A stretch of 64,000 nucleotides of DNA from positions 1 to 64,000 of the IMG/VR virus record IMGVR_UViG_3300028591_000180, one strand, 5' to 3'. Below, one piece after another: positions 18,322 to 63,202 of the stretch. The stretch is from a virus. Taxonomy: Duplodnaviria; Caudoviricetes. The notes below the pieces were generated by a model. It did not search any database. It was not told the DNA's origin and saw nothing but the letters and a program-made list of their open reading frames with translations. Position 1 is the first letter of the stretch. Each line of letters starts with the position of its first letter. Made by a program: the position numbers and the translations under genes.

Positions 18322-20340
18322 ATGCCAATTAGTAGTTTAGATGAAATGCACAATGATTTCATGGTTTATGCAACTGAAGTAAATAACAACAGAGCTTTCC
18401 CTGATGCTAGAGATGGACTCAAGCCAGGAATGAGAGCTGCTCTTTATACTATGTTTAGGAAAGGATTTACCTCTAATAAGCCTCACGTGAAGTCAGCTAA
18501 GATTAGTGGCGCAGTTATCGGTGAGCTGTGGCCACATGGGGATGCCTCAGTATATGAATCTATTGTTAGGATGTCACAAGACTGGGTTAATAATATTCCT
18601 GAAATTGATTGGCATGGGGCCAATGGTTCATTATTAGGTGGACCTGAAGCTGCCTCATCAAGATATACTGAGTGTAGATTATCTACAGCTAGTGAAGATG
18701 GATTCTTCTCTAATATTAAAAAGAATACTGTTGATATGATACCTAACTTCTCAGAAGATGATGAATGGCCAGTAGTATTCCCAGCTATCTTCCCAAGATT
18801 ATTCGTTAATGGATCACAGGGTATCGGCTATACAATTGCACAAGAGTGGGAACCGGGAAATTTAAATGAATTTGTTACTAAGGTAAAAGAGTATTTAAAA
18901 AATAAGACTATAACTTATTCTGGAATTTATCCTGATTATCCAACCGGTGGAGTTATTATTAATAAGAGTTCGATCGAAGATATTTATAGAACTGGCCGGG
19001 GTACTATTATCCTTAGAGGTAAAGCTGAGATTGATGGCAATATCATTAAGATTACTTCTCTACCCTATCAAGTATATGTTGAGCCATTTATCACAGAAAT
19101 TAAGGATTTAGTTAATTCAGGAAAGATTACTGGGATTGAAGATATTTGTAATAAATCAGGTGATCAAGGAATGTTAATTGAGATTGAGTGTGGTGATGAT
19201 CCCAATCTAGTTTTAGCTTCACTGTATAAGTTAACTGATCTGCAGGCTACGTTTTCAGCTAACCAGATGGCTCTAGTTAATGGAAAGCCTGAACTATTAA
19301 GCCTTGAAGACTACATTAGAGTTTATGTTAATCATAACTTAGAATGTATCAAAAGAGAATATCAGTTTGAAATCGAAAAAGCTAATTCTAGGCTTGAAAT
19401 TGTAAATGGCTTAGTTAAAGCTCTAGTTATTATTGATGATATCATCAGGACTATCAAGGCAGCTAAAAGCTCAGAGGAAGCAAAGAATGATTTAGTAAAA
19501 TTAGGTTTTACTAAGAATCAGGCTCAGGCAATCGTTGACATGAAGTTAGGCAAGTTAGCTCACTTAGAAGGAGTAGAGCTAAATAAGGAAAAGGCTGATC
19601 TTGATAAAAAGGTAGCTACCTTTACTAAAATACTGTCTTCTCCTAAGCTGCAATCAAAAGAATTCCTGAAGAGATTAGATGATTTTACTTCTAAGTATGG
19701 ATGGAACCGCAGAACAGAAGTGATAGATGTTGATATTAAAGAAGAGAAGAAAGCTACTAAGAAGGCTAAGGTTTCTACCGAACAGGTTATGGTTTGCCTT
19801 ACTGACCAGCATGAAATTAAGAAAATTTCTTTAGCTGAATATCGTCCACAAAAGGCTTTGAATAACCTGTGTTCTATTAAGGTTGGCTCTAAGGATAAAT
19901 TTTTCTTAGTTTCTAATAAGGGTAAACTATACAAGTTACAAGCAAATAAGATCTCATTAAGTACAATGAAGTCATCAGGCACTTCAGTTGGTGAGCTCCT
20001 AGAATTAGGTGAAAACGAAAGAATTCTGAAGATCTTCTCTGGATCTGAAGAAGAACCTTACCTGTTTATGATTACTGACAATGGTAATGTAAAGAAGATG
20101 GATTGCTCAGAAGTATTTGGAATTAAGAAATCTGGTACACCAATTATCAAATTACATGAAGAGAATCTATTCGATGTATATTTAGTTACAGATAATACAA
20201 TTGTTACTGCTACTATTTCTAAACCAAAGACTTGTTCTATTAAGGTATCTGATTTCAAGTCTAAAGGAAAAAAGGCTGCAGGGGTTAGAGGATTTAAACT
20301 GAAGAAATATACCCTGATGTTTATATCTTTGCTAAATTAA
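18322..20340 (+). CDS. gyrA: type IIA DNA topoisomerase subunit A (GyrA/ParC-like)
   Basis: RAFPDARDGLKP, WPHGDASVY, catalytic SRYTE; short C-terminal domain; gyrase versus Topo IV not resolvable from sequence. Confidence 0.93.
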   Translation: MPISSLDEMHNDFMVYATEVNNNRAFPDARDGLKPGMRAALYTMFRKGFTSNKPHVKSAKISGAVIGELWPHGDASVYESIVRMSQDWVNNIPEIDWHGANGSLLGGPEAASSRYTECRLSTASEDGFFSNIKKNTVDMIPNFSEDDEWPVVFPAIFPRLFVNGSQGIGYTIAQEWEPGNLNEFVTKVKEYLKNKTITYSGIYPDYPTGGVIINKSSIEDIYRTGRGTIILRGKAEIDGNIIKITSLPYQVYVEPFITEIKDLVNSGKITGIEDICNKSGDQGMLIEIECGDDPNLVLASLYKLTDLQATFSANQMALVNGKPELLSLEDYIRVYVNHNLECIKREYQFEIEKANSRLEIVNGLVKALVIIDDIIRTIKAAKSSEEAKNDLVKLGFTKNQAQAIVDMKLGKLAHLEGVELNKEKADLDKKVATFTKILSSPKLQSKEFLKRLDDFTSKYGWNRRTEVIDVDIKEEKKATKKAKVSTEQVMVCLTDQHEIKKISLAEYRPQKALNNLCSIKVGSKDKFFLVSNKGKLYKLQANKISLSTMKSSGTSVGELLELGENERILKIFSGSEEEPYLFMITDNGNVKKMDCSEVFGIKKSGTPIIKLHEENLFDVYLVTDNTIVTATISKPKTCSIKVSDFKSKGKKAAGVRGFKLKKYTLMFISLLN

Positions 20341-20345
20341 ATATA
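20328..20345 (+). promoter_or_regulatory. putative late promoter, copy 2 (overlaps the gyrA stop codon)
   Basis: TTTGCTAAATTAAATATA. Confidence 0.6.
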
Positions 20346-20369
20346 GTGGAATTATGAGGAGGCTAGTAT

Positions 20370-31083: not shown

Positions 31084-31187
31084 TAAATAAATTTTACTAA
31101 ATAGGTGGTTAGTCTGATTAGATTATCACCTTATTTAGTTTTACCTAGTAAAATAATATAAGGTATAATTAAAATGGAGGCTTAAAA

Positions 31188-31412
31188 GTGAAATTAACTG
31201 AGGTCGTTAGCTCAAATATTAATAAAATTGGATATGAAAATAATAACTTATTAGTAGAATATAAATCAGGGGTTAAGTATCAGTACAAGGAAGTACCACA
31301 AGAATTATATGAGAAATTAATTTCCGCGGAATCTAATGGTAGATTTATGAATTCTGAGATTAAAGGTAAGTTCGAATACATTAGAATTGAAGATACCCCG
31401 AAGAATCTTTAG
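31188..31412 (+). CDS. KTSC-domain protein
   Basis: VVSSNINKIGY...LVEYKSG..YQY..VP..Y..LISAESNGRF; own promoter TTTACC(31140)-N18-TATAAT(31164). Confidence 0.85.
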   Translation: MKLTEVVSSNINKIGYENNNLLVEYKSGVKYQYKEVPQELYEKLISAESNGRFMNSEIKGKFEYIRIEDTPKNL

Positions 31413-31471
31413 CCCTGTAGATTCTTCGATATACCCTGTAGATTCTTCGAGTTACCCTGTAGAATCTACAG
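31399..31471. repeat. three 21-bp-period direct repeats plus one inverted partial copy (iteron-like)
   Basis: CCCTGTAGATTCTTCGA at 31413 and 31434; CCCTGTAGAATCTACAG at 31455; CGAAGAATCT (reverse complement of AGATTCTTCG) at 31399. Confidence 0.8.
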
Positions 31472-31530: not shown

Positions 31531-31548
31531 TTTGCTAAATTAAATATA
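31531..31548 (+). promoter_or_regulatory. putative late promoter, copy 3
   Basis: TTTGCTAAATTAAATATA. Confidence 0.6.
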
Positions 31549-31572
31549 ATAAAAATCATTGGAGCTTTTAAT

Positions 31573-34500
31573 ATGAAAATATTAGTAGAAAATATAGACG
31601 GCGGAATTACCTATAAAGAAATATACGAGAATCTAAAGGAAGTAACTTCTAATTTTTCAGTTGAAGAAGGTATCTTTAAATGTGATTCTCTTTTTGAGGC
31701 TAATATCGCTAAAGAAATTTTAAATCGGGTGTATTCTGATGTATATACAAAACCATTAGACATGAATGATGATTTTGATTTGTATTATTCAGTAGTTTTT
31801 TCTAATAAGATTTCTGAAGAATATAAGGATTTGGAAATCCAACCAGATAAGGATCCATCTGGTACTCCAATCGGTAATGGTACAGGCTTAGGAGAACAGT
31901 TAATAGAAAAGATAGTTAAAAAATCAGACGGATACTATGTTCAATCTGAGAAGGGTAAAAACTTAGGTGGACCTTATTCAAGGGAAGATGCTGAAAAGAG
32001 GTTAAAGCAAGTGGAATATTTTAAACATAAAGATGAATCATTAAATGAAGCTGATGATGAAGAAGTAGAAGATTATGAAGAAGATCTTCTTGAATTCTTT
32101 GACGAAGAATTATATAATACTTATGAAAATGATTTATCAGCGGCTACTAAAAAGGAATTACTCGCTGATGCTAGAGAAGCTTTTAGTGATATACCTGAAA
32201 CTATACTTAAAAAGGTCTTTAAAAAATGGTTAAAGAGTGCTGCTAAAGGAGTTGAAGAATACTCCTCAGAGCAGAAAAAATGGGCTCGTGATGGTCACAA
32301 TTGGGTATTAGGTATTTTAAATGACACACAGAAGTGGATTAATGCCTTAAAAGAAAAAGCTGAAAAATTAGTTGGTCAAAGAGAAACCATGTATACAGGA
32401 GGAACAATAAAGGGTATTAAAGATTCAAAAAATATTTTATACAAAGGCGTTCCTATCTATGCAGTTACTTATGAAATTCCTGACTCTCCTAGGCCAGAGC
32501 GTAGAGAAATAACCTATTTCTATTTTCCTTATATTAATAATTATATTGATGGGCCAGTAGTAAAAACCAGATATTCATTGGGAAGTGCGCATGAAGAGAT
32601 TGATGATCTTCTTGAAACAAATAAAGTTACAGCTAAAGATGAATCATTAGATGAAGCAGCTACTCCACTTAAGTATCAAGTTGAAGTCACAGTAGATGGT
32701 GAATACGATGCTGACATAGATGAATACTGGATCCCAGATAATCTTCCTGATTTATTACAAGGTTATTATGGTCAGGAGCCTGTAGATCGTTCTCAAAAGC
32801 AATGGCATTTATATTATGCTTTTGCTACTAAAGAAGCTTGCGATAAGTTTGTCAACGCGGTGACTAATATGGGCTATGTAGTTTCAGATATTAATGATGA
32901 TGAAGTTGGATATGATTTTGAAGAATCATTAAATGAAGCGAAGAATAAAAACTATAGAGTTGAGCTATATTACTATGACAATAATAAACCTGACGATGTA
33001 ATTTATTTTGAAAACCTGAAAGTAGCATATAATTTCTGTAATAATAAAATTTCAGACAATATTGCCTATGATGATGGCCTTACTGGTATTTTAGTGTTTA
33101 ATGAAGCTAAAGATAAATTATTAAACACCTGGCAAAATGGTGGTAGAGGCTGGGAAAATAAATCCAAGGAGTTAATTAAGATGAATGAGTCATTAAATGA
33201 AGCTAAATATGGGGCTTATGATAATACACCTGAAGATGTTATTATGACTGACTTAGGAATTGGCCCAAAGAAGAGATTTAGAGTTAGATACTATAGTAGA
33301 GGCAGTTCAATATTATCTTCTATTGTAGTAGAAGCTAACACAAAAGAAAACGCTTATAAAGAAGCTATTAAATTAGGTATTAGTGAGTTCGCCATTAAGA
33401 GTATAAACGAAATTAAACCAAAGGCTCAATCTACCAATGAATCTTTAAATGAAGAAGTAAATTTAAAACCTGGAGATGTTAAGTGGTCTTGGTGGCTTCA
33501 TAGCTATTTAATTTATCAGGGTTATAATAAGATAACAAATAAGTATAAATTTGAAGATTTTGGAGATAGATTAATTTATCTTACCGCAGAAGAAGTTTCA
33601 GACCTAGAAGACAAACCTAATAAGAATGAATCATTAAATGAAGAATATGAGGCAGGCGTAAAGATACCTAAAAAATATTTATTAGCTAATGGTTATACAG
33701 AAGAAGAAATTAATGATTTACCTAATACATTATATTCTAAGTATACTGTAGATGTTAAAATTGCACCTAATGATATTATAATTACTGATAACCACCACGG
33801 TTATAACGTTTCATATTTTATGCATTATTCTGACTTAGCTAGATTCGCTAGAGAAATTAATGAATCAATAAATGAAGGTGTATCTCCAGAACAGGCAGCA
33901 CAACTTAATAAAGAATGTGATGAAATTTATAAATATCTTTCTGAAAACGGCATACATGAGGACGTTTGATGGGATGATTCAGGTAGAATAAATATTGAAA
34001 TTGAATGGGGTGACTGGAAACACGAACACCTTAGATGTAATAGACTTATGACGATGCTTGGTTATGAGTGTGTTGATGAAGTTGTAACAGATGAAGATGG
34101 TAGTGATACTTATTCTGCTCGCCATATTTATAAAAAGATAATGGATGAATCATTAAATGAAAGTGATAAACCATCATTCCTTAATTATATGTATGATATT
34201 TTTGGTGATGACGACCGTTGGGAAGAAAACCCTGATGTAGAAGATTATTACCGCCAAGAATATAACACAAAATATGATAGTGATAGTGATTCTGATAACT
34301 TTATTATAGACCAAACTTGGAGTGATGTGCACCCATCAAATAATCTTAATGATTATTCAGAACCAAAAGAAGAAGAACCTGAAGAGTACGAAATGACCGA
34401 AGAAGATTATGCTAATATGTTAGATTCTTATAATCTTACTTTAGAAATGTCTGATGAAGAAGCTAAAACCCAGATTGAAAAAGAATTTGCCGGAATGTTA

Positions 34501-34794
34501 AGTTGGGGTGGTATTTCTAAAGAAGACTATATCGAAGGTCAGAAAGAAATTTTTGACACCTGGAAGATGTTAAAAGAAAGAGATCAGAAACCAGCTCCAA
34601 CTACTGAAGCTCTTAATGAAGAAGATGAAGAGCCTGAAGCCAGGTGCCCTAATTGTGGCGAGGAAATGAATTTCATTGGTTATCAAGGCCATGACGAAGA
34701 ATTTAAGTGCCCAATTTGTGATGTGTATTTCTATTATGACCCAAATAAAGAAAAACTTATGACTGCTGTCGAATATGAAGACATGCATCATTAA
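31573..34794 (+). CDS. 1073-aa acidic polyprotein with nine ESLNE-type linkers (putative internal head/ejection protein)
   Basis: Track ORFs 31573 and 34048 are in frame and joined by one TGA at 33967. Confidence 0.8.
32035..34620 (+). repeat. dispersed GAATCATTAAATGAA (ESLNE) linker repeats
   Basis: Exact copies at 32035, 32923, 33628, 34147; single-mismatch copies at 32641, 33187, 33439, 33862; EALNE at 34606; all in the coding frame. Confidence 0.9.
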
Positions 34795-34809
34795 TTAGGG
34801 AGGTAGGGT

Positions 34810-36033
34810 ATGATAAAAGATTTTGATAAATTAAAATATTTATTAAGTGAATTACTTACAAAATACCGAAACGAAATAAGAAACGGTGATTTTGATAAGG
34901 TAGTTTATTCTTTATGGTGAAACTCAGATAGATACAATGGGAAAGATTTTAAGGGTAAAACTTTCCTTGGATATTGTAAAAGTTTGGGGATGCTTAGCCC
35001 ACATCAAGTTATAGTAGAAATAAATAATACTTGCGGTACTAATTTTAAAGATAGGTTATTAGATAAAGATAATAAAGACTATTATTATTTAAAGTTTATT
35101 TATACTTGATATGATAGCTTACATCCTGAGTGGGGCCCCATTTCTAGAGAATATTGGTTACAGGCCTATTCAATTAATGGTAAATTACAAGCTCAATTTT
35201 GAGATATAACTACTATTGAAAATAGGCTGTGTTTTGATTCTGAAAGTGAAGCTAATAATTTAATTAATAGGATAGAGTCATTAGGCCATTTACCACAGGA
35301 TCCAAAGAAGAGACTAGACCTTTCAAAAATGAAGTGGAAAACGGTTAAAGTAAATAAAAATTCTAAAGTTTATGAAAAACTTGGACCTATGGTAAAGAAG
35401 TTAGTATATATGAATTTAAGTACTCTTCATGAACCAGTATCTGAAACTTTACCAGAATTTTATGGATATATTTACTCAAGTAGAAATAATGGTGAGATAC
35501 CATTTAGTGATGATGATTTTGTAGCCGAGAGTTTAAGTGAAGCTGTTTCAAACAGTTTATATAACGGCGGTTTGAAAGATAAGAAAGCCAAATTGGATAA
35601 TGAGAAAATGAGTATTAAGTCATTAACAGAGAAAACGGATTTAACTTATGAGCCTGAATTGGTCCAGAAGTTAGTTAATAAATATGCAACTCCTGAGTTA
35701 CGTAAAAGTGATTTAGATGATATCTGAGAAGAAGTTATGGAAAAATATGATAATGTTGATTTAGCCGAAGAAGTTTATGATTCTCTCCATGCTTGGCTTG
35801 GTGATATGTGGAATGAATCTTTTAAAGCTGACAATATTAAAGATGAAGAACCTGAAGATTGGCTTACAGAAAAGAGAAATTCTTGTATACGTGATTATAG
35901 GATGTGGGCTGGTCTTGGTGATGACGAGTTAATCACTGAAGATAAAATTGATGAGTGGGCTTTAAATAGAGTAAGCTGTAACAGTAATTACGACTATGAT
36001 GATTTAAAAGAAGTATTACTGTCAAATAAATAA
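34810..36033 (+). CDS. hypothetical protein (407 aa under TGA=Trp)
   Basis: ATG 34810 after GGAGG; in-frame TGA at 34918, 35107, 35200, 35725 join track ORFs 35329 and 35737. Confidence 0.75.
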
Positions 36034-36047
36034 TGGAAGGGTAGAAC

Positions 36048-37124
36048 ATGAAAATAAAAGTTAAAAAGAAGATTACTGAATCTAAAAAGCTTAATGAGGC
36101 CTCTTTAGAAGATGAGGTTAAATCAGCTGAGAGTCAGATTGATAACGATAAGGTAGTCAACGGTAATAATCCTGGTCAGATTGAAACAGCTCTTGATAGA
36201 GCTTTACGTACAGCTGAGAGACAAAAGAGAACCGGCGGAAAGAATTATACTAATATTATTTTAATTGGTGGAGCTGGTACTGGTAAGACTTCAGCTGTTC
36301 TTGATTGAGCTCAAGAAAATGGAGTTAACGTTGTTTTACAAAATACTTCTACAATGGATGAGACTGACTTAACTGGTGTTGTTGCTAGAAGTGCTGAGGG
36401 TAATTCAACCGTTAAATTACGTTCTGATGTATTAAAGGGATTAAATGAACCCAGATCGATCTTATTCCTTGATGAGTATAACCGTGGCCGTAAATCAGTT
36501 CGTGGTACATTATTAACATTAATTAATGACCACCTTATTGATACAGGTACTGACCAGGAATCAAATGTTCCAGGCTTACAAGGTAAGTATGAATTAAAGA
36601 ATATGTTATTCACTGTTGCGGCTATTAACCCGGCCTCAGGTGAATATACTACTGATGAGCTTGACCCAGCGGAAATTTCTCGTTTCAGAAGAATTGAGGT
36701 AAAGGCTGATAAGAAACACTTATTAGATATTATGACTCAGAAGTTTATTAAGCAGGCAGAGTCTGAAGGTGCTACTGATGAAGATAGAGAAATTATTGCT
36801 GGCCAACTTGGTTTATTAACTAAATTATTATCAGATAAACAATTCCAATTTGATGATGAGGAAGACGAGAGGGCTGGCTATCGTAAATATGGAAGAGATT
36901 ATACTCCATTATCACCAAGATCTCTCGTTAATTTAATTTCAGCTACTGATGGAACTAAAGAAGATTTACTCGATTTATACAATGATTTCTGTAACCCATT
37001 AAAGAAGAATACTATTGAAATGATTCTCCAGGATTACAGTGATGTTGATGATAAGGCTAATTCAGTATTTAAAAAGAGAGAAAAATCAGACGAAGAAAAA
37101 TTAGATGATTTCTTAAATATGTAA
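36048..37124 (+). CDS. MoxR-like AAA+ ATPase (358 aa under TGA=Trp)
   Basis: Walker A GGAGTGKTS, TGA 36306 (VLD-W-AQE), Walker B ILFLDEYNR, VAAINP, ISRF. Confidence 0.88.
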
Positions 37125-37137
37125 GAGGTGATAACTT

Positions 37138-37734
37138 ATGGCAATGACTGAACGTGAAAAGTTAGGCCGCGAAATTATCATAAAATCTCTAAGGAAAGAA
37201 GGATATGTTACTTACAGTAATTTACTTTCTGATTTCCATTTAAATTTTACCAAAGATCCCGATGTTTTAGGATATATGGAACCTGATAGAGGTACCATCA
37301 CCGTTAATTCAAGTTTAGATATGGACCAGATAAAGGTTATAATTAGACATGAAATTCTCCATTTCTATTTAAAACATCATATTCGTAGTATTAAAAAGAT
37401 GGCTCAGCTAAAAGGAGTAGATCCAGATAGTTTAGATGATATGACTTTTAGAGAGATGGAAGAACTTGTTTATGGTGACCCAGAGAGGCTTGATAACATT
37501 GCTAAGGACTTTGAGATTTCTAATAGAGGCTATACCGATAAAGATAAAGCGATCGTTAGGTCCATGCATGCTCTAGTTACAGAAGATCATCATGAAGACT
37601 GAGTTGATCTGACAATGGAAGAGATGTATGAAAAACTTTTACAAGAAAGAGAAAATAGAGAACCTATTATGTATGGGGCATTACTTGACCCTACAACCTT
37701 TGTGGGAGCAGATGGAGTAGTTTATGGCAATTAA
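37138..37734 (+). CDS. putative zinc metallopeptidase domain protein (198 aa under TGA=Trp)
   Basis: IRHEILH HExxH motif; read-through of TGA 37600 places the stop overlapping the next ATG. Confidence 0.75.
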
Positions 37735-38575
37735 GTTAGTTGAGGAAAGAATACATGGCCATTTTAGAGGCGGTGTGTTCTGTGATGAAAACGGAAACCC
37801 AATTCCACTGAAGATGTCAAACATTGGATCTCAAAAGGGTAATGGTAATGATCAGGGACAAGATTCAGGTAGTGATGATGGATTATCTGGGTCTAATTAT
37901 AGTATCGATACTTCAAATCTCTCAGAAGACGTTAAAAAATTAATTGAAAGAGCTAATGATATTCAAAGAAGACTTAGTGAGGGAGAATCAGTAGATCCAC
38001 AAGAATTAAAAGATTTATTGAATGACATTAAAGCTAAGGCAAAAGAAATAGCTGACCAAAAAGGAAGAGAAGCTGATAAAGAAGGATTAGATAAAGCTGG
38101 TAAATCTATTCAGGGTGCTCTAGATGAGTTAGATGGAGAAGAATCTCAACCTGACCAAAGTAGTAATAACTCTAATCCTCAAAATAAAAAATCTCCTGTC
38201 CGTGGAAAACCGGGTTCTGGCAATAGTTCTAGTAAACAAGATTCAAATGACCAGGAGCAAGTCCCGGCTGGTGGTTCTGGCAATAGTTCTAGTAAACAAG
38301 ATTCAAATGACCAGGAGCAAGGCCCGGCTGATGGCTCAGGGAATAGCTCAGGTAACCAGAAGTCTAATAACAAATCTCCTAACCAAAACTCAGATAGTCC
38401 AAACTCCGGATCTGGTGGTGATTTTGATGATTCAGGCGATGACCAGGATAATAACCAGGATGAAAAGAAATCTCAAGACAAAAAAACTCCAGATCCTAAT
38501 ATGATTTACGTAGATATTAGGAATCATTACCGTTATAGGTGGAATGGAAAGGAGTTTGAGAAAATAGATGGCTAA
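37724..38575 (+). CDS. low-complexity Ser/Asn/Asp/Gly-rich protein of the AAA/VWA module
   Basis: 283 aa; helical middle plus a disordered SQDN-rich segment with a 20-aa duplication. Confidence 0.75.
   Translation: MAIKLVEERIHGHFRGGVFCDENGNPIPLKMSNIGSQKGNGNDQGQDSGSDDGLSGSNYSIDTSNLSEDVKKLIERANDIQRRLSEGESVDPQELKDLLNDIKAKAKEIADQKGREADKEGLDKAGKSIQGALDELDGEESQPDQSSNNSNPQNKKSPVRGKPGSGNSSSKQDSNDQEQVPAGGSGNSSSKQDSNDQEQGPADGSGNSSGNQKSNNKSPNQNSDSPNSGSGGDFDDSGDDQDNNQDEKKSQDKKTPDPNMIYVDIRNHYRYRWNGKEFEKIDG
38213..38332 (+). repeat. 60-bp tandem duplication
   Basis: GGTTCTGGCAATAGTTCTAGTAAACAAGATTCAAATGACCAGGAGCAAG at 38213 and 38273. Confidence 0.9.
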
Positions 38576-39476
38576 ACAATTAATAGAAGAATTAAATGTA
38601 TACATCGATGATGATACTGGTGATGAATACGTTTTTGATGGATCTACCTTAGTTAAAATAAAAGTTGGAAATAAACAAATAGGTGATAAAGGAAGCGAAG
38701 AGATAAGGGCTAAGGAAGAAGCTGAAAGAAATGAAGAAGCTAAGAAAGGCGGAGTCATTGAAGATGCTGAAGAAACTGAGGCCCGAATTAAAAGATTACA
38801 AGCTGCTCTTGATGACCCTGAAGTCGCTAAAGAAATTACTCGAGAATCAGATGACCATATAGCTCAACAGAAAGCAAAAAAGGAATTAAAGGAACAAGAG
38901 AAGAAGTTAAGAGAATTTCGTAATGATCCAATTATTCAATTTGAGGGTTCTTTAAACCATTTTATCCGTAAAGAATTAAAAATGGTAGAAGAACAAACCT
39001 ATAGTCGATTGAATAAAAAGTATGATGGCACTGGATTAATCCGTAAGGGTATTAAACGATATGAGAGTGAAGAAGTACCTGTTATCAATGTTTACTTCGA
39101 TAGATCTGGATCTTGGGGTGAAGATAAAACAAAAATTGGTAGACAGGCTTTAGCTACTTTAGATAAATACGTCAGGATGAAAAAAATTAAAGTTAATATC
39201 AAATACTTTAATGATAAAGTATTTACTGAATTTATTCCAGATGGCCGGGGTGGAACTTACGGGTCTCCAATCTTAGCTGATGTGTTGGCTGAAAAACCAG
39301 ATAATGTTATTGTAATGACTGACTCTGATATTTCTGACTGTAAAGAATACGTTCAGGTACCTGGTGTTGTTTGGTATTTATTTAAAGGTGGAAGATCTAG
39401 TAATATTGAAAGTCATCTAACCGGAAAAATAGCTACTGAAGCTTTTGAGCTAAATGTCTCAAAGAATGAAGAATAG
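38568..39476 (+). CDS. VWA (MIDAS) domain protein
   Basis: YFDRSGSW (DxSxS), GGT, VIVMTDSD. Confidence 0.82.
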   Translation: MAKQLIEELNVYIDDDTGDEYVFDGSTLVKIKVGNKQIGDKGSEEIRAKEEAERNEEAKKGGVIEDAEETEARIKRLQAALDDPEVAKEITRESDDHIAQQKAKKELKEQEKKLREFRNDPIIQFEGSLNHFIRKELKMVEEQTYSRLNKKYDGTGLIRKGIKRYESEEVPVINVYFDRSGSWGEDKTKIGRQALATLDKYVRMKKIKVNIKYFNDKVFTEFIPDGRGGTYGSPILADVLAEKPDNVIVMTDSDISDCKEYVQVPGVVWYLFKGGRSSNIESHLTGKIATEAFELNVSKNEE

Positions 39477-39487
39477 AGGTACTAAAA

Positions 39488-40036
39488 ATGGAAGTAGATA
39501 AAGAGTTTATTAAAAATGAAGTATTATCAATTCCGGGATTAAGACAGGCCATGAGGGAAAATAACTATGACGAAGTTTTTAGACTTTGTAAGTCTACAAA
39601 GAAAATAAACCAGCTAGCTGCTGCCCTTTATATTTCTAAAGTTGATTTTTTAAGGCACATGACTCATATTCCTGAGAGTATGTTCAGGGGAGTTGATTTA
39701 ATCACAGAGATTACCATCCCTGGAAATATTAAGACTATCGGTGATTTGGCTTTCTTGCAAACAGGCCTTGAGAAATTAACTCTTGAAGAGGGTGTAGAGG
39801 AAATTGGCGATGGTGCTTTTGCTCAAACTAAAATTAAAGAAGTTTATTTACCGAGATCAGTTAAGAAAATTGGTAGAGCGGCTTTAGGCAGAGCTGAAGT
39901 TTACTGTTATTTTTCAAAAGAAGATCTAGTCGGAGATAATCCTACAGTAAATCCTGAAGGAAACACCTTTACTTATGGTAATGTAATTAACCAGGAGACT
40001 GGTGAAGTTTTAAAAGATAAAGGGGCAACATATTAA
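39488..40036 (+). CDS. BspA-type leucine-rich repeat protein
   Basis: ITIPGNIKTIGDLAF / LTLEEGVEEIGDGAF / VYLPRSVKKIG repeats. Confidence 0.85.
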   Translation: MEVDKEFIKNEVLSIPGLRQAMRENNYDEVFRLCKSTKKINQLAAALYISKVDFLRHMTHIPESMFRGVDLITEITIPGNIKTIGDLAFLQTGLEKLTLEEGVEEIGDGAFAQTKIKEVYLPRSVKKIGRAALGRAEVYCYFSKEDLVGDNPTVNPEGNTFTYGNVINQETGEVLKDKGATY

Positions 40037-40048
40037 AGAGGTAAAACA

Positions 40049-41968
40049 ATGAATAAAAATGTTTTTAAAATGTTCTTAAATGAGGACTTGGCTGATAAAG
40101 AATTAGATGAAGCTTTACCTAAGGATTTAGCTAAAGCCTATGATAATTCTAGTGTAGGACCTGATAAAAGAAAATATATTGGAAAGAATGGCCAAAAAAT
40201 AGACTGGCAGAATGTTAATTATGAGCCGCTTACTGTTGACCAGGGTAAAGAGCTTTGGAAAACTGATCCTTCTAAGTTGATTTTAATTATTCAGGACCGT
40301 AGCGGTAATGATAGAGTAGTTAAGTTTAGAGAAGATGGCAAGGTAGATATTGATCCTGCTTATGGTAATTACAGATTTGATTTACCATTATCCAATGCTT
40401 ATGTAAAAAGAGATGGAACTAAGGTTGTTGATGTTTTCAAGGCAAAGATTAATCACCTATTAAGTATCGCCAAGAAGATTTATAAAGGTGATGAAAATGT
40501 TTATAGAGATCAAGCATCTTTAGATGCTAGGGCTGCAAATCCAGAATCTCCACATTATGCTGGATTAGATAAATCTGAGATTATTTCTAAATTCCAGGCT
40601 GTTAATTCTAATGATTTACTACGTAAATTAAAAGCTAGAGGAGGCCAGTGGGCTGAAAATATAGCTAGATCAGTAATCCCAACCAGTGCTACTGGGTATG
40701 ATATAATTAAATGGGATCCAGTTAATCATGTCGCTATAGTGTCCGGTTCTTATGGTGGAGCAGGTAATGCTGATTACTGGCTAGAAAAATTCTTGGAATA
40801 TTATAAACGTTGGAGCTCAAGTGATGGTGATACTTGGCGTGCCTGGTGTGCCTATTTATTAGCTAAACAAGATGGTGATACAACTTATCGTAATCCAACC
40901 GAAGCAGAAATTAGAAGATGGTATAATATTTCCACTAACCCTGAGAAAGATTTAAATGCTAGAATTAGGTATCTTGATGTTGAAAAAGTTTTATCAGAAC
41001 CTAAAGAAAGAGTAAAGCAATCTATTGAAGATGCTAAAAGGTTAGAGAGAAATTTAGAAAATGCTCAAAGTAAAAAATCTAATTTTACTTCACCTGAAGC
41101 TAGACAAAGCCGCGAATCTGATATTACTTATTATATTAATAGATATAAAGATAGGCTAATGACCATCCTTGCTGAGCTTGAAAAATATGAAGGTAAAATG
41201 GATGAACTAGATGCATCTGATGCTAGAAGAATTAGTGAATATGATAAGGAGATCTCAGATATCTCTCAGAAGCTTTCTGATGCTAAGGCAGAATATGGAA
41301 AACTCATGAGTGGTGGTGCATACAAGAATTCACCATTCGGAAAACCAGTACCTGAAAGTTTAACTGAAGAAAAATCACTTGATGAATTAGTAGATCAGAT
41401 TATTGGACATCGTGATAATCAATTAGAAAATTTAAATGAAGATCTTGATGGAGACAGAGTTTCTGCTTTGGCTGAATTTTTAGATATTAATCCAGATGAT
41501 ATTTCTGAGGTTTCTGAGAATGATTTTAATACTCCCGAGGGTGAATATTTAGTTTTAACTGAAGAAGAAGCCCATGACAGAGCTGTTGATGAAATTAAAA
41601 TGTTATTTGATGATATGGGTTTAAATGCTTTCACCCCTGAATTCCAGGAGAGAATTACTAATGAGTTCTTATCAGAAGATGAGATCGATAATTTTATCGA
41701 AGGCGAAATTGAATATTATTCAACAGAAGAAGATGACCAGGAAGCTTTAGAAAGATTACGTAATTTATCAACAAAGGCTGATAAAATTAATTATATTAAA
41801 GAAGTATTTGGTGATTTAGCTGATTTTGTCAGAGATCCTGATTATATTGATATTGATGCCGTAGCAGATGAAGCTATTAACCAGGATGGTGTTGCTCATT
41901 TCATCGCTTATTACGATGGTGAAGAAAACGAGCTAGGAAATGGGTTCTTAGCTTATAGAGTTAATTAA
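40049..41968 (+). CDS. large acidic/coiled-coil protein, probable internal virion protein
   Basis: 639 aa; FLNED, LDEA, ESLTEE and ENLNED motifs. Confidence 0.7.
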   Translation: MNKNVFKMFLNEDLADKELDEALPKDLAKAYDNSSVGPDKRKYIGKNGQKIDWQNVNYEPLTVDQGKELWKTDPSKLILIIQDRSGNDRVVKFREDGKVDIDPAYGNYRFDLPLSNAYVKRDGTKVVDVFKAKINHLLSIAKKIYKGDENVYRDQASLDARAANPESPHYAGLDKSEIISKFQAVNSNDLLRKLKARGGQWAENIARSVIPTSATGYDIIKWDPVNHVAIVSGSYGGAGNADYWLEKFLEYYKRWSSSDGDTWRAWCAYLLAKQDGDTTYRNPTEAEIRRWYNISTNPEKDLNARIRYLDVEKVLSEPKERVKQSIEDAKRLERNLENAQSKKSNFTSPEARQSRESDITYYINRYKDRLMTILAELEKYEGKMDELDASDARRISEYDKEISDISQKLSDAKAEYGKLMSGGAYKNSPFGKPVPESLTEEKSLDELVDQIIGHRDNQLENLNEDLDGDRVSALAEFLDINPDDISEVSENDFNTPEGEYLVLTEEEAHDRAVDEIKMLFDDMGLNAFTPEFQERITNEFLSEDEIDNFIEGEIEYYSTEEDDQEALERLRNLSTKADKINYIKEVFGDLADFVRDPDYIDIDAVADEAINQDGVAHFIAYYDGEENELGNGFLAYRVN

Positions 41969-41979
41969 GGAGAATAATT

Positions 41980-42315
41980 ATGACTATTAATGGAATCGAT
42001 GTTACACCTATTATTAAAGCAGTAATTGAAGTGTTAGCCAGTGTTTTAGTAACTTTGATTGCTACTAAGATTATCCCATGGCTTAATTCAAAATTTGAAA
42101 AAGATCAACTTGAATTTATTAAGTCAGTTGTTAAGGTTGCTGTTAGTGCAGCTGAGCAATTATATGACAAGGCCCAGGGTGCTGAAAAACTAGAATATGC
42201 CATTAATTTTGTTGTCACTGCTTTAGAAGAAAAGGACATTATTATTGATAAAGAGCTTTTGAGGACTTATATTGAGGCTGCAGTATTAGAGTTACATAAA
42301 GCCTTAGAGGTTTAA
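41980..42315 (+). CDS. phage holin, LL-H-like family
   Basis: N-terminal TM helix, then VKVAVSAAEQL..GAEKLEYA...IEAAVLEL. Confidence 0.8.
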   Translation: MTINGIDVTPIIKAVIEVLASVLVTLIATKIIPWLNSKFEKDQLEFIKSVVKVAVSAAEQLYDKAQGAEKLEYAINFVVTALEEKDIIIDKELLRTYIEAAVLELHKALEV

Positions 42316-42316
42316 T

Positions 42317-43066
42317 ATGGAGTTGAATGAATTTAAATTAAATCAGGATCCTGAGTATTTAGCTGACTTCGAGATGGAACTAGAAGACCTCAAAGACATT
42401 ATTGATACTTGGGGACCTGATAGCTTATATGCAGTACCTTATAGCAGATTTAAAAGAGATTATCCTTTATTTGCTAAAGCCATTGTTGAATCATTCTTAG
42501 TTGATATGGGAATTTTAACTCAGAATGAAATTTCTGATATTGATAACTTAGGTGATGAAGATGGTAATTATTGGAAGACCGGAAGATTAATTAGACCAGA
42601 AGAAGATTGGCCGACTTTAATTGATGGTGCTGAGAGGTTATTGACTTTCCGTAAGGATAAAGGAATTCAATGGGAAAAGATATACCCTAAACATGTCGGT
42701 GTTGATAAACCAAGTGGTGATAATTCTATAAACGAGGATATGGAAACTCTTGATGATGAAGTTTATCCTATTATTAAAGAATATTTTGACTGGTTTTTAG
42801 ATCCAACTGAAAATGAGTGGCTGGCTGATCAAGCTGCTGAAAAAGGCGTAGATTTCTTTGATGAGGCTAGATCCTATTTATTCGAAGAAGACCCTGAAGA
42901 GGTATGGAGAGATCCTGAGGTTGGTATTATTGATACTGGCTTATTAGAAAATGAAGAACTAGCTGATATTTGAAATAGTATCCCAGATGAAGATCTTGAT
43001 GAGTTCTATAATAAGTTAATTACTATGTCAAAGGATTATGCTAAACAAGTCTTAGACTCAAAATAA
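42317..43066 (+). CDS. acidic hypothetical protein (249 aa under TGA=Trp)
   Basis: TGA 42971 read through to TAA 43064-43066, just before a terminator. Confidence 0.7.
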
Positions 43067-43093
43067 ATTTTATAAAATTTATAATAAATAATT

Positions 43094-43153
43094 GGACTGT
43101 AGTTTACAGTCCTTTTATTTTTGACCTATAATAATAATGTAAATAAAGGAAGG
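43094..43153 (+). promoter_or_regulatory. terminator + early promoter cassette
   Basis: GGACTGT-AGTTT-ACAGTCC hairpin; TTTACA(43103)-N18-TATAAT(43127)-AATAATGTAAATAAAGGAAGG. Confidence 0.8.
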
Positions 43154-43161
43154 TACTGAAG

Positions 43162-43323
43162 ATGTTTGAATTAAGACACACTGATGAAAAGAGAAGCTAT
43201 GATGATCTAGTTCTTTCAACTAAAACGATGCCGTGGTTACATTATCGTGATTTAGTTAAGGCAGCTGAGTCTTTATCAAAAGACAATAAAGGTATTTTCT
43301 ATATTAAAAGAATTAAAGAATAG
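43162..43323 (+). CDS. hypothetical protein (53 aa)
   Basis: MFELRHTDEK...; follows promoter and RBS; not in the ORF track. Confidence 0.65.
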   Translation: MFELRHTDEKRSYDDLVLSTKTMPWLHYRDLVKAAESLSKDNKGIFYIKRIKE

Positions 43324-43359
43324 TTTACTAAACTATGTATAATTTATTATAATAATAAT

Positions 43360-43480
43360 GTAAAAGGAGCCCTCCGGTAATCTTAGGATTGACGGTGAAA
43401 GACGGAATATCTTCGGATATTGTTGAAAGTAAGGATGCGTCCAGAAATCATTAACGCGAAAGGCAACAAAATATATTAAA
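43360..43480 (+). ncRNA. candidate structured small RNA with its own promoter and terminator
   Basis: Promoter TTTACT(43324)-N18-TATAAT(43348); GC-richer segment with no ORF, hairpins CCGGTAATC-TTAG-GATTGACGG and AATATC-TTCG-GATATT; terminator at 43484-43515. Confidence 0.55.
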
Positions 43481-43483
43481 TTA

Positions 43484-43544
43484 AAAGAAAGTTAGTTTCG
43501 AAACTTTCTTTTTTATTATATAATAATAATGTAAATAAAGGAGG
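43484..43544 (+). promoter_or_regulatory. terminator + early promoter cassette
   Basis: AAAGAAAG/CTTTCTTT hairpin with TAGTTTCGA in the loop; TATAAT(43519)-AATAATGTAAATAAAGGAGG. Confidence 0.75.
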
Positions 43545-43552
43545 TAACTCAG

Positions 43553-43762
43553 ATGTACAAGACCACCTGGACAGTAAAAGACTTAACCACAAATATCACT
43601 AATGAAGTGGTATTATATCATCTGGGTAAAGAACCAAAATTCCCAGTTCAGTACTTAAAAGAAAATAGAGTCTATGAGGTTGAAATGATCTGGAATTTTA
43701 AGATTAACTTTACACTAAATTCACTCATTAAGTGCTTAATCCCTCAGTGTGAAATAAGATAA
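43553..43762 (+). CDS. hypothetical protein
   Basis: 69 aa after GGAGG. Confidence 0.7.
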   Translation: MYKTTWTVKDLTTNITNEVVLYHLGKEPKFPVQYLKENRVYEVEMIWNFKINFTLNSLIKCLIPQCEIR

Positions 43763-43763
43763 T

Positions 43764-43895
43764 ATGAAAAAATCAAAGGTTCGAGATCTGTGGATACCAC
43801 AATCCTGGCGTTATAATGGCAGCGGGTTTCATAAGAATAAAAAGAAAATAATTTTTAGAAAAAGAAAATACAAGGAGAAAGAAAATGAAAATTAG
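43764..43895 (+). CDS. 43-aa highly basic peptide
   Basis: MKKSKVRDLWIPQSWRYNGSGFHKNKKKIIFRKRKYKEKENEN; not in the ORF track. Confidence 0.55.
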   Translation: MKKSKVRDLWIPQSWRYNGSGFHKNKKKIIFRKRKYKEKENEN

Positions 43896-43986
43896 TGAAA
43901 GAGTTTTAAAAAAGGCTATCTGGTGTGAAATCTTATCTGGGTTATTATTAATCTCTGTAGTTTCATTGGCCCTTACAATTTTCTAA
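43885..43986 (+). CDS. 33-aa membrane peptide
   Basis: MKISERVLKKAIWCEILSGLLLISVVSLALTIF; starts at a GGAGAAAGAAAATG junction. Confidence 0.55.
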   Translation: MKISERVLKKAIWCEILSGLLLISVVSLALTIF

Positions 43987-44020
43987 GAAAACTAATTAGT
44001 TTTCTTTTTTAATGTTATTT

Positions 44021-44038
44021 ATTGCTAAATTAAATATA
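44021..44038 (+). promoter_or_regulatory. putative late promoter, copy 4
   Basis: ATTGCTAAATTAAATATA downstream of a terminator-like hairpin. Confidence 0.6.
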
Positions 44039-44070
44039 AAATTATAGAAAAAATTATTTGGGAGGCATAT

Positions 44071-44928
44071 ATGAAAAGATTGTCTGAAGAGATGGACGTC
44101 GATAAGGTATATTTTAACAAATTATCTGAGGAAGAAGTAGAAAAGTCTTCTGATGAGATAAAGAAGGAAGCTGAAAAAGATCTTAAAGATGGTGTGGAAG
44201 TTGCTGCAGAAGTTAACAACCCCAAGGGAGTTGAAACACCTAAAGAGGTAGAAGTTAAGGTTTTAAAGGAGCAGTTAATTCTTAGTGAAGAATTAGATGA
44301 AGATGAATATTTTGATTTAGTTTCTGAATTATTCCAGGCCATGCAAAAGGTTTGTAAGAATTGGGCTAAGTATTCCGCTGTAGATTATGAAGATTTCGAG
44401 AGAGCTATTTCTGAGGCCTCAGAACGTTTAATTGAAATTGAGCCTGAATTGTGGGAATCATTAAAAAATAATAGTGTAGAAGAAGCTTATTATTCAGACC
44501 GTCCAATTAAAGAAATTGCTAGTGAAGTTAGAGGTTCTCTAAAATCATTCATTGATAGTTTAGTTAAAAAGTATGGTGCTAAAGTAATGAGGTCAGGCAC
44601 AATTCAAGGTATCTTCAGAGATGAACCTTCAAAAATCTTATATAAATTACAGGATGTTAAAGTTGATGAATCATGTGACGATGAAACACCTTTAGAAGAA
44701 GATTTTAAGGTGATTAGTACTTTAAATAATTTTAAACCTTGGTCAGGTGCAGTCGATACCTGGAATACCATTAAGGATGCCGGAATGTTAGATTCTCTTG
44801 ATTCATTATTAGAAGAAATTTATCCTGAGGGATTAGATGAAACTGAGTTAAATGATTTACTGTGGTTCGAACCTGAATGGATTTTAGATTCTCTTGGCTT
44901 AGGAGATGGTACTGAGGATGAGGAATAA
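44071..44928 (+). CDS. acidic probable internal head protein
   Basis: 285 aa; RLSEE, ILSEE, ESLK and PLEE motifs. Confidence 0.7.
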   Translation: MKRLSEEMDVDKVYFNKLSEEEVEKSSDEIKKEAEKDLKDGVEVAAEVNNPKGVETPKEVEVKVLKEQLILSEELDEDEYFDLVSELFQAMQKVCKNWAKYSAVDYEDFERAISEASERLIEIEPELWESLKNNSVEEAYYSDRPIKEIASEVRGSLKSFIDSLVKKYGAKVMRSGTIQGIFRDEPSKILYKLQDVKVDESCDDETPLEEDFKVISTLNNFKPWSGAVDTWNTIKDAGMLDSLDSLLEEIYPEGLDETELNDLLWFEPEWILDSLGLGDGTEDEE

Positions 44929-45232
44929 ATTATTATTAGAAGAGGCTGAAGATTTCGAAGCAGAAGTTTCTACAGAGGAAGCTCAGCCTATTTCTGATGA
45001 AGTCATTGATGAATTTAATATTCAGGCTATGATTTCATCACTCATTAAGGATACATGGGGATTAGTAGATACCATTAATGGTATCCAGATGACTCTTGAA
45101 GATAAGAGTGAAGAAATTAATGCTACTTTAAAGGAAATTGTTTCAGACGAGTATATGCATATTGGGCAGTTAGAAAAAATTATCCAAGCGATTAAACCTG
45201 AAGCTATTAACTTGGAGGTAGAAGTTAAATAA
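44918..45232 (+). CDS. ferritin-like/helical hypothetical protein
   Basis: MRNKLLLEE...DEYMHIGQLE. Confidence 0.6.
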   Translation: MRNKLLLEEAEDFEAEVSTEEAQPISDEVIDEFNIQAMISSLIKDTWGLVDTINGIQMTLEDKSEEINATLKEIVSDEYMHIGQLEKIIQAIKPEAINLEVEVK

Positions 45233-62365: not shown

Positions 62366-63202
62366 ATGTCTGAAGAAAATAATGAATTCGGATTTGGTTG
62401 TTTACCTGGAAAGATAGACTTAAGAGATTATAAAATTAAACGAGAGGTAGCTATGGCTTATAATTACCCTGAGACTTTTTCTTTAGAGCATCCTCCAGTA
62501 AAAAACCAAGGAGCTGTAGGATCTTGTGTAGCTCATGCTACATCTGAGATTCTTGAGTCTCATTTAAAAGAATATAAGAAATTATCTACAAATTTTTTGT
62601 ATGGCATTCATTATAAATTATTTGGTAGCAAGGGCCCTGGGATGTATTTACGAGAGGCCTGTAAGATAGCTAAAGATTATGGTGACCCAGAAGAAATTTT
62701 TTGTAAAGGAAATACTGAAGTTCCACATGTTTATTCAATGGCTGAGAATTCTTTTAAGGATCCATCCGTTTTAGAAAATGCTAATAAGTATAAAATTAAT
62801 AGCTATGTTAAACTTAGGACAGAAAATGATATTAAATATTCATTAATGTATCATGGGCCAGTATTAATCAGTGTTGAATGATTTTCTGATTATGAGTTTA
62901 AATACTCAACTGGGATTTTATCTCCTGGTGTAAAAAGTGCTGGGCTGCATTGTATTATGATTTATGGGTGAAATGAAGATGGTTGGTTATGCCAGAATTC
63001 ATGGGGAGAGCTCTGAGGTAAAAACGGTTGTTTTGTTCTTCCTTATACTTATGAAATCAATGAGGCTTATGCCTTAATTTCTGATCCTTCTAGAGACGAT
63101 ATAAATAAAGTTAAAAGGTGTAAGCTTTTAGATTTTATGTATAAAATATTAAATAATTTAATAAATTGGTTTGTTGATGTATTTAGGTGACTTAAGAAAT
63201 AA
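62366..63202 (+). CDS. papain-like C1 cysteine peptidase (278 aa under TGA=Trp)
   Basis: NQGAVGSCVAHA; HCIMIYG-W-NEDGWLCQNSWGEL-W-GKNG; TGA at 62879, 62969, 63014, 63188. Confidence 0.9.

Follow-up and report, generated by a model that had tools for sequence, protein, structure and literature searches.

The gene at 31573..34794 (+ strand) of the tailed-phage record IMGVR_UViG_3300028591_000180 (Duplodnaviria; Caudoviricetes) encodes a polyprotein of 1073 amino acids (aa), in which small unrelated modules follow one another and are separated by a recurrent five-residue joint of the ESLNE type. It is certain that this is a modular, shuffled and jointed polyprotein. The stretch of DNA that we analyzed, hereafter the window, corresponds to the first 64 kb of the 74.5-kb IMG/VR record (completeness ~49% according to CheckV).

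In our best explanation, the gene belongs to an uncultured phage of the T4 type that reads TGA as Trp, about 10-12 unrelated and independently folding small domains are translated as one chain with (D/N)-E-S-L-x-E at each boundary, a gp21-type head-maturation protease (Peptidase S77) would cut after the last Glu of each joint, and the single gene would then yield a set of 3-23 kDa proteins. Proteases of the T4 type act on proteins that are built into the prohead core, and for this reason we think that the chain is probably loaded into the capsid and cut there, its pieces being delivered with the DNA like the internal proteins of T4, which is the least certain step. The DNA of the joint would probably allow recombination in frame, by which modules are gained, lost, reordered or split off as genes. 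To the complete reading, in which T4-type phages from the guts of ruminants and from other gut habitats possess an expandable array of capsid-delivered effectors that combines prohead loading, cutting into at least ten mini-proteins, injection against host defenses or for host takeover, and in-frame module exchange, we assign a probability of about one in three. The cutting of the joints by the S77 head protease, considered on its own, is a step toward which we lean slightly.

A chain of unrelated modules with a uniform joint

The window has a G+C content of 33% and carries nearly all of its genes on the + strand. Throughout the record, many fragments merge into long open reading frames (ORFs) when TGA is read as Trp, as in the ORF at 2632-5160, which contains 7 TGAs; judged from these frames, the phage therefore uses genetic code 4. 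Read with table 11, the polyprotein frame gives 798 aa, a TGA and 248 aa; read with table 4, it is a single 1073-aa ORF (125 kDa, pI 4.45) with one TGA at 33967-33969 (W799), 18 of its 19 Trp codons being TGG. The initial annotation had described a 1073-aa ORF with one TGA read through, and this description is borne out by code 4 and by homology, since W799 falls inside module M8 and the match to stand-alone M8 proteins is unbroken across it (aa 777-856). An in-frame TGA in a sequence that consists of a single metagenomic contig could also betray an assembly chimera, or a row of decaying pseudogenes that are open only through read-through. However, code 4 is backed across the whole record, the homology of the M8 family crosses the TGA, the gene is devoid of any TGA in several relatives, and independent samples and assemblers have yielded dozens of jointed relatives as well as a protein that is 98% identical. 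Such an artifact is thus extremely improbable, and the independent relatives have effectively refuted it already.

The motif E[SA][LI][ND]E is found at nine sites of the polyprotein (aa 155, 357, 451, 539, 623, 686, 764, 859 and 1012), which delimit ten segments of 154, 197, 89, 83, 79, 58, 73, 90, 148 and 57 aa. With an arrow placed after the last Glu, the joints retrieved by motif search on the + strand are ESLNE↓A (32035..32049), ESLDE↓A (32641..32655), ESLNE↓A (32923..32937 and 33187..33201), ESLNE↓E (33439..33453 and 33628..33642), ESINE↓G (33862..33876), ESLNE↓S (34147..34161) and, in ninth position, the degenerate form EALNE↓E (34606..34620). The sequences directly after the joint Glu include AKNKNYR..., AKYGAYDNTPEDV... 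and EVNLKPGDVK.... The strict form ES[LI]xE is observed 8 times, compared to a mean of 0.13 and a maximum of 3 in 20,000 composition shuffles. A comparison of each segment of the polyprotein with every other gave no significant mutual similarity, so that the picture of nine ESLNE-type linkers between unrelated segments, which was drawn before this analysis, proves accurate. Further degenerate joints are found in segment 1 (KISE↓E at ~aa 82 and EQLIE↓K at aa 108-112), and these two probably split it into three. When 94 joint sites from 23 related proteins are brought together in a logo, E in P5, S in P4, L in P3 and E in P1 are near-invariant, with D, N or G in P6, a variable P2 (N, T, D, K and others) and A, S, D, E or G in P1'.

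The joint is also conserved at the DNA level, beyond codon bias. The 15-mer GAATCATTAAATGAA is present in 4 exact and 4 one-mismatch copies, every one of them within the polyprotein ORF, and allowing up to 2 mismatches brings the count to 10 in the window, for 0.8 expected. The exact 15-mer makes up 4 of the 6 ESLNE joints, for an expectation of 7.6% (p ~4e-4), and the Ser of the joints in the window is encoded by TCA in 7 cases out of 8, compared to 29% genome-wide (p ~0.001). These counts reproduce those on which the DNA-level conservation of the linker had been claimed. In six relatives, the joint Ser is TCA in 33 of 41 cases and AGY in a single one, the joint Leu is TTA in 37 of 39, and outside the joints of these same relatives AGT represents about one quarter of the Ser codons. 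Pooling the window with its relatives gives TCA for Ser in 40 of 49 joints (~29% elsewhere), AGY in 1 of 49 and TTA for Leu in 44 of 47, and the DNA-level consensus of the joint is GAR-TCA-TTA-nnn-GAA.

As a whole, the polyprotein matches no family of the Pfam and PHROG libraries, and it is its individual modules that provide connections to other proteins. The first of them, M1a (~aa 1-78; 31573..31806), carries the N-terminal leader MKILVE; it also comes first in six relatives (P0004, P0005, P0007, P0012, P0032 and P0152), five of which display an M..(I/L)xE leader. M1c (aa 111-154; 31903..32034), which reads KNLGGPY...VEYFKHK, has matches outside the window in Aeromonas phage 1233, in 5 IMG/VR contigs and in stand-alone proteins of 56-64 aa; its version in P0004 weakly resembles DUF2188. 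M8 (aa 769-858; 33877..34146) belongs to the WGDWKHxH...EDGSDxYSA family, which accounts for most matches of our profile search and comprises many stand-alone proteins of 74-110 aa, one of which is encoded by an 84-aa gene that adjoins the terminase gene of an Oscillospirales phage. An AF2 model of a stand-alone M8 member (44 stand-alone homologues) predicts a compact ferredoxin-like a-b-b-a-b-b fold with a pLDDT of 92, which suggests that this module folds alone; fold searches of the model against PDB and BFVD returned generic ferredoxin-like look-alikes only, such as the C-domain of PulM/EpsM, and no functional match. M10 (34621..34791) closes the chain with a CPNC...CPIC zinc ribbon, recognized by its motif and by weak zinc-ribbon matches in Pfam. 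The three modules that had been singled out beforehand (KNLGGPYS..., IEWGDWKHEHL...EDGSDTYSA and CPNC...CPIC) are thus all present in the polyprotein. In the modules of the relatives, weak family matches were obtained to PemK/MazF-like, NTP_transf_2 and GNAT proteins, to zinc ribbons and to a DUF2188-like unit, and relative L005 has a two-module gene in which a DUF3293/SAM-lyase-like domain is linked to M1a via ESLNE.

Shuffling of the modules and equivalence of joints with gene boundaries

An exhaustive profile search with the polyprotein yielded 995 related proteins. The majority are short stand-alone homologues of single modules, chiefly M8, and about 25 among the top 150 matches are long proteins with 2-10 ESLxE joints of their own. 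A tblastn search against cultured phages gave two single-module matches only, and a scan of IMG/VR with the whole protein returned distant M1c carriers only. Some relatives do not have canonical joints; a single-linkage clustering of the segments was discarded since it over-merged them on this account, and the order of the modules was read by mapping those of the window onto the relatives. M9 lies before M4 in P0004-P0007, but the window and P0008 have it after M4; M10 comes ahead of M9 in L005 and P0007, and the position of M10 varies among P0004, P0007, P0012, P0032 and L005. Many modules are found in one member of the family only, and ten polyproteins aligned globally show no collinearity. 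The number and the order of the modules therefore both vary among homologues, and the invariant order that was considered as a possible refutation of the array is not what we find; modules that exist as stand-alone genes in other phages, which had also been looked for, were found for M1c and M8.

In pairwise comparisons of the relatives, 33% of the homology blocks end within 6 aa of a joint, compared to 9% at random. Because stretches of homology between relatives start and stop at the joint, its DNA probably serves as an in-frame recombination point. Indeed, the conservation of its codons, taken with this enrichment of breakpoints, supports the idea that joints spread or recombine as DNA, and both observations fit the earlier suggestion that the 15-bp linker may double as a recombination site. 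A parallel can be drawn with the PeSL cassettes (PMC2839356, PMC4122927), in which a short conserved sequence beside variable small genes acts as a recombination joint, and PeSL-like elements have been noted at the ip loci of T-even phages (PMC2839356). The likeness is one of mechanism only, as far as the analogy goes: PeSLs are intergenic promoter-stem-loops of ~100 bp, whereas the joint described here is a coding, in-frame element of 15 nt, and shuffling keeps a single ORF.

The joints also coincide with points of gene fusion and fission. Several cases come from L015 (154 kb) and L017 (152 kb), the near-complete contigs of two close relatives (RecA 57-83% and MoxR 74-86% identical) that keep the order of the locus, i.e., recA ... 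KTSC gene, polyprotein, MoxR, HExxH peptidase, acidic protein and vWA. In the window, the polyprotein is followed by a second jointed protein of 407 aa (34810..36033, + strand), whose joint AESLSE↓A at aa 240-244 (35527-35541) was identified by its motif. The polyprotein locus of L015 is one 1500-aa jointed ORF that ends in the C-terminal module of this protein, placed there after ...ESLTE↓SSANSNGVY..., and in L017 the same module is a separate gene that starts with MKLNE↓AVSNGVY.... In the same way, a 639-aa protein of the window (40049..41968, + strand) with the leader MNKNVFKMFLNE contains an internal PESLTE↓E joint (41354-41368, again from a motif search); the part that follows this joint is fused in L015, as in the window, and stands on its own as a gene in L011, L013 and L017. 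In P0008, where it is the first module, a nucleotidyltransferase unit begins with MIIMAKNDTL; in internal positions, it is preceded by the joint, as ESLDE↓AKNDTL. Since these fusions and fissions occur exactly at the joint, the joint is, by these comparisons, interchangeable with a gene boundary.

These observations bear on the possibility that the chain is never cut, and that ESLxE is a flexible spacer in an uncut multidomain protein, kept since its DNA is the recombination joint. The codon-level conservation of the joint would be expected under such a scenario, and the polyvalent proteins of phages and conjugative elements (Iyer et al. 2017, PMC5512222), which are common in phages with 2-15 domains and are in some cases delivered uncut, give it a precedent. 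However, the variable position of the joint is precisely the one that the rule of the protease leaves free, and its four other residues are fixed by nonsynonymous constraint. Genes fuse and split at the joint with neither part being lost, and the modules correspond to unrelated stand-alone proteins that have no obvious reason to act in cis. Moreover, the separate gene of L017 retains its MKLNE↓A leader while joining nothing, and a solitary module that keeps an L-N-E leader, as read from its sequence, is puzzling if the joint is a passive spacer and readily understood if it is a processing site. We thus regard an uncut protein as unlikely. The resemblance of the array to polyvalent proteins, the closest known systems after the internal proteins of T4, is nonetheless real, since in these too many unrelated domains form a mosaic in one phage polypeptide, for which proteolytic release has been proposed. 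The differences are that none of their signature domains (MPTase, ArdC-N, SNF2, methylases and DarA) is detected here by Pfam, that no embedded peptidase is detected either, and that a uniform joint stands here at every boundary, linkers being unmentioned in the text of PMC5512222.

A candidate protease and the proposed fate of the chain

If the joints are processing sites, it is the relatives that point to a protease. The 74.5-kb record itself has no match to the S77 and S78 (HK97-type) proteases nor to Gp23, the head module being off the contig: the record starts with small genes and nrdD, which in the syntenic relative L014 lie 2-3 kb downstream of the capsid gene, so that its first nucleotide falls ~2 kb beyond the place of that gene. 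L014, whose NrdD is 81% identical, carries within 21 kb Portal_T4, Peptidase_S77, Gp23, nrdD, nrdG and a 1206-aa ESLTE-jointed polyprotein; its Peptidase_S77 is a 511-aa protein (30.4 bits for a cut-off of 27) fused to a coiled-coil scaffold. L012 carries both Gp23 and a polyprotein, and in L011 and L012 the polyprotein is located two genes upstream of a gp13-like neck gene. By this gene content, the phage lineage is of the T4 type.

The gp21 protease of T4 cleaves after Glu in the context L/I-x-E (PMC9026906), a rule that all 9 joints of the ORF and 94 of the 94 sites in the 23 relatives obey. The correspondence extends to the capsid protein of the clade, in which FLTEA aligns with FLTE65↓A66 of T4 gp23, whose solved mature chain begins at A66. 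The capsid proteins of the clade display F[LMI][NT]E↓[ASG] at the maturation site in 119 cases out of 120, FLNE↓A being the commonest form, and their P2 residue is N in 102 and T in 15. Among the joints, SLNE↓A is the most frequent form, and P2 is N or T at 65% of the sites. Over positions P3-P1', the sequence of the joints is a copy of the site of capsid maturation. The proposal that the linker fits the L/I-x-E context of T4-type prohead proteases has therefore been strengthened, as relatives carry a gp21-family S77 protease and the joint matches the capsid site.

Another enzyme could of course cut the joints in the cytoplasm, be it the HExxH peptidase encoded nearby, a C1 peptidase of the phage or a host protease; the array would then have no capsid role, and one message would simply express many small proteins. 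The polyprotein, MoxR, HExxH peptidase and vWA genes retain their synteny in L005, L015 and L017, and a vWA-like segment is found among the modules of P0026, a jointed protein. The C1 peptidase lacks a signal peptide and has papain-like GSC...H...NSWG motifs, in which the catalytic residues are usually located; it would cleave ESL(N/T)↓E, Leu then being the P2 residue. The invariant E-S in P5-P4 likewise suggests a recognition that is more specific than L/I-x-E. Against such an enzyme, the polyproteins of L011-L014 have no MoxR or peptidase neighbor, as they lie close to a neck gene of the gp13 type or downstream of the gene for the capsid protein, and the Pfam matches of the adjacent peptidase are below the cut-offs. 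In addition, the first residue of the domains in their stand-alone forms is the one that follows the Glu (AKNDTL, AVSNG) rather than the Glu itself, as a cut after Glu would have it, and it would have to be by chance that the joint and the site of capsid maturation are identical over P3-P1'. We therefore consider cytoplasmic cutting by another enzyme improbable.

Processing by the head protease would bring the array close to known systems. The closest are the internal proteins IPI-III and Alt of T4, which carry a capsid-targeting leader and are processed by gp21 (PMC9026906, PMC12373910, PMC3012670). As for these proteins, a T4-type head and an S77 protease exist in the lineage, a site of the L/I-x-E↓A type starts each unit, the units are mutually unrelated and highly variable between relatives, and the forms encoded by separate genes have an M-K-x-L-x-E leader. 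The internal proteins of T4 have only a packaging leader in common and are injected anti-restriction proteins (PMC12373910). In contrast to this arrangement of one gene per protein, the units are here strung in frame into chains that reach 1500 aa, a stereotyped joint of five residues stands between them, the leader is devoid of T4 similarity and the chain is acidic. The ejection and inner-body proteins of the giant phages phiKZ, 201phi2-1 and SPN3US, which are internal to the head, are also cut after Glu at short motifs by gp21-like proteases, often several times per protein (PMC9026906, PMC5694885), but they form paralogous families with propeptides and an S/A-x-E motif, and are not swappable unrelated modules. 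Finally, polyproteins of the RNA-virus type carry an embedded protease, whereas a Pfam search of our polyprotein and of ten relatives detected no protease family inside the chain, some modules being of unknown fold.

Several points nevertheless weigh against the capsid-delivered array. Cleavage, packaging, injection and an anti-defense role are all steps that we infer, and the protease is off the window's contig and had to be taken from relatives. The E-S in P5-P4 of the joint is absent from the capsid site, which has K/R-F there, so that the joint holds information beyond the rule of the protease and may be read by something else. The MKILVE leader has no sequence similarity to the capsid-targeting sequence of T4, and the chain is very acidic (pI 4.45), whereas the internal proteins of T4 are lysine-rich and contact DNA (PMC3012670). 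The location of the gene in the window, with recA on one side and the MoxR/peptidase/vWA operon on the other, is outside the head cluster, and its strong preference for TGG is unlike the TGA-rich genes that look structural. Moreover, T4 gp21 is also able to cut a cytoplasmic protein (PMC12991175), and cutting therefore need not mean encapsidation. Of the injected, protease-cut array that the initial annotation had put forward, the jointed and shuffled family, the T4-type lineage and the match of the site have thus stood, and cleavage, packaging and injection are its proposed parts.

That annotation had also presented an expandable, protease-segmented effector array as undescribed, and a literature search on ESLNE and on phage polyproteins indeed found no uniformly jointed polyprotein in tailed phages. 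If the joints are cut, this would represent a principle of gene organization that is undescribed for tailed DNA phages, in which one ORF gives rise to many accessory proteins, and perhaps to their delivery, through a standard connector that lets units be exchanged at will. In the same case, the paradigm of the T4 internal proteins would be widened from three single genes to large combinatorial arrays, the joint would provide a sequence rule to recognize hundreds of candidate injected or anti-defense proteins in metagenomes, and the array would be a natural design for the delivery of multiple protein cargoes by phage capsids. From one phage clade to another, the motif of the joint would moreover be expected to change together with the site of capsid maturation. 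In the complete reading, the array would also amount to an integron-like cassette system at the protein level, with a 15-nt joint allowing exchange between phages.

Expression and surroundings of the polyprotein gene

A 20-nt promoter-like motif, TTGCTAAATTAAATATAATA, is located at 31532..31551 (+ strand), 22 nt upstream of the polyprotein ATG. In the general form TTGCTAAATTAAATATAA(T/A)A and at 3 mismatches or fewer, this motif has 4 copies in the window for 0.14 expected, and the copies at 2590-2609, 20329-20348, 31532-31551 and 44022-44041 precede the gene starts at 2632, 20370, 31573 and 44071, respectively. A TGA-rich 842-aa ORF shares its upstream motif with the polyprotein. The motif likely corresponds to a phage-specific class of promoters distinct from the sigma-70-like early ones, which suggests a non-early class. 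That the polyprotein is a late gene is no more than plausible: the motif shared with this ORF speaks for it, but the polyprotein has TGG for 18 of its 19 Trp codons. The late-promoter octamer of T4, TATAAATA, was also considered and shows no enrichment (15 seen for 15.5 expected), and a scan for sigma-70 promoters and terminators gave nothing informative.

Leaders of the form M-(K)-x-(L/I/F)-x-E begin 7 of the 14 genes at 31.5-45.3 kb (the block 31573-45232), compared to 1 of 73 elsewhere in the record, in a test that was designed post hoc; examples from the block are MKILVE, MAIKLVEE, MAKQLIEE, MNKNVFKMFLNE and MKRLSEE. An eighth gene of the block, 42317-43066, begins with MELNE↓F and was missed by the pattern of the test. 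The whole block may encode head-targeted proteins. The protein encoded at 42317-43066 (249 aa) has NSINE↓D as its sole joint, and is homologous at the N-terminus to a second jointed-polyprotein locus of L015 (16330-18117) and L017 (16355-17485), which has 6 and 3 ESLxE joints, respectively, and sits downstream of a holin-like 111-aa gene.

Immediately upstream of the polyprotein lies a small KTSC-domain gene (31188-31412), whose position is kept in L015 and L017 and which has its own sigma-70-like promoter at 31140-31169. Between this gene and the promoter motif, three direct copies of CCCTGTAGA(T/A)TCT... are arranged 21 nt apart at 31413-31471, and the third forms the palindrome CTGTAGAATCTACAG; this element could be an operator or a terminator.

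Downstream, an operon at 36048-39476 that is syntenic in L005, L015 and L017 comprises, on the + strand, a MoxR-type AAA+ ATPase (36048..37124, AAA_5 match), the HExxH peptidase-like protein (37138..37734), which displays a HEILH motif and weakly resembles DUF6782 and DUF2201_N at scores under the cut-off, a low-complexity protein that is acidic, and a DUF2201 vWA-like protein (38568..39476, weak matches and phrog_1314). The peptidase and vWA genes each have a match to PHROG 1314, whose name is "HNH endonuclease"; from these matches, this name looks wrong, and the phage would carry the split form of a fused family.

Other recognizable genes of the window are nrdD, gyrB, gyrA, recA and a nucleoside deoxyribosyltransferase, together with BspA-type leucine-rich repeat (LRR) proteins, an M23 peptidase-holin fusion and the papain-like C1 peptidase (62366..63202, + strand; Peptidase_C1, E 1.5e-15). 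The gene of the latter adjoins that of the M23-holin fusion, contains four TGA-Trp codons and encodes an amphipathic C-terminal tail; its product could act in lysis or in processing. A MoxR protein 86% identical to that of 36048-37124, P0278, is found on a 154-kb contig of this phage group that was deposited at NCBI as "MAG: Methanobrevibacter sp.", a label that is probably a binning artifact of a low-G+C phage contig. The names of the samples suggest a T4-like group from the ruminant gut in which TGA encodes Trp.

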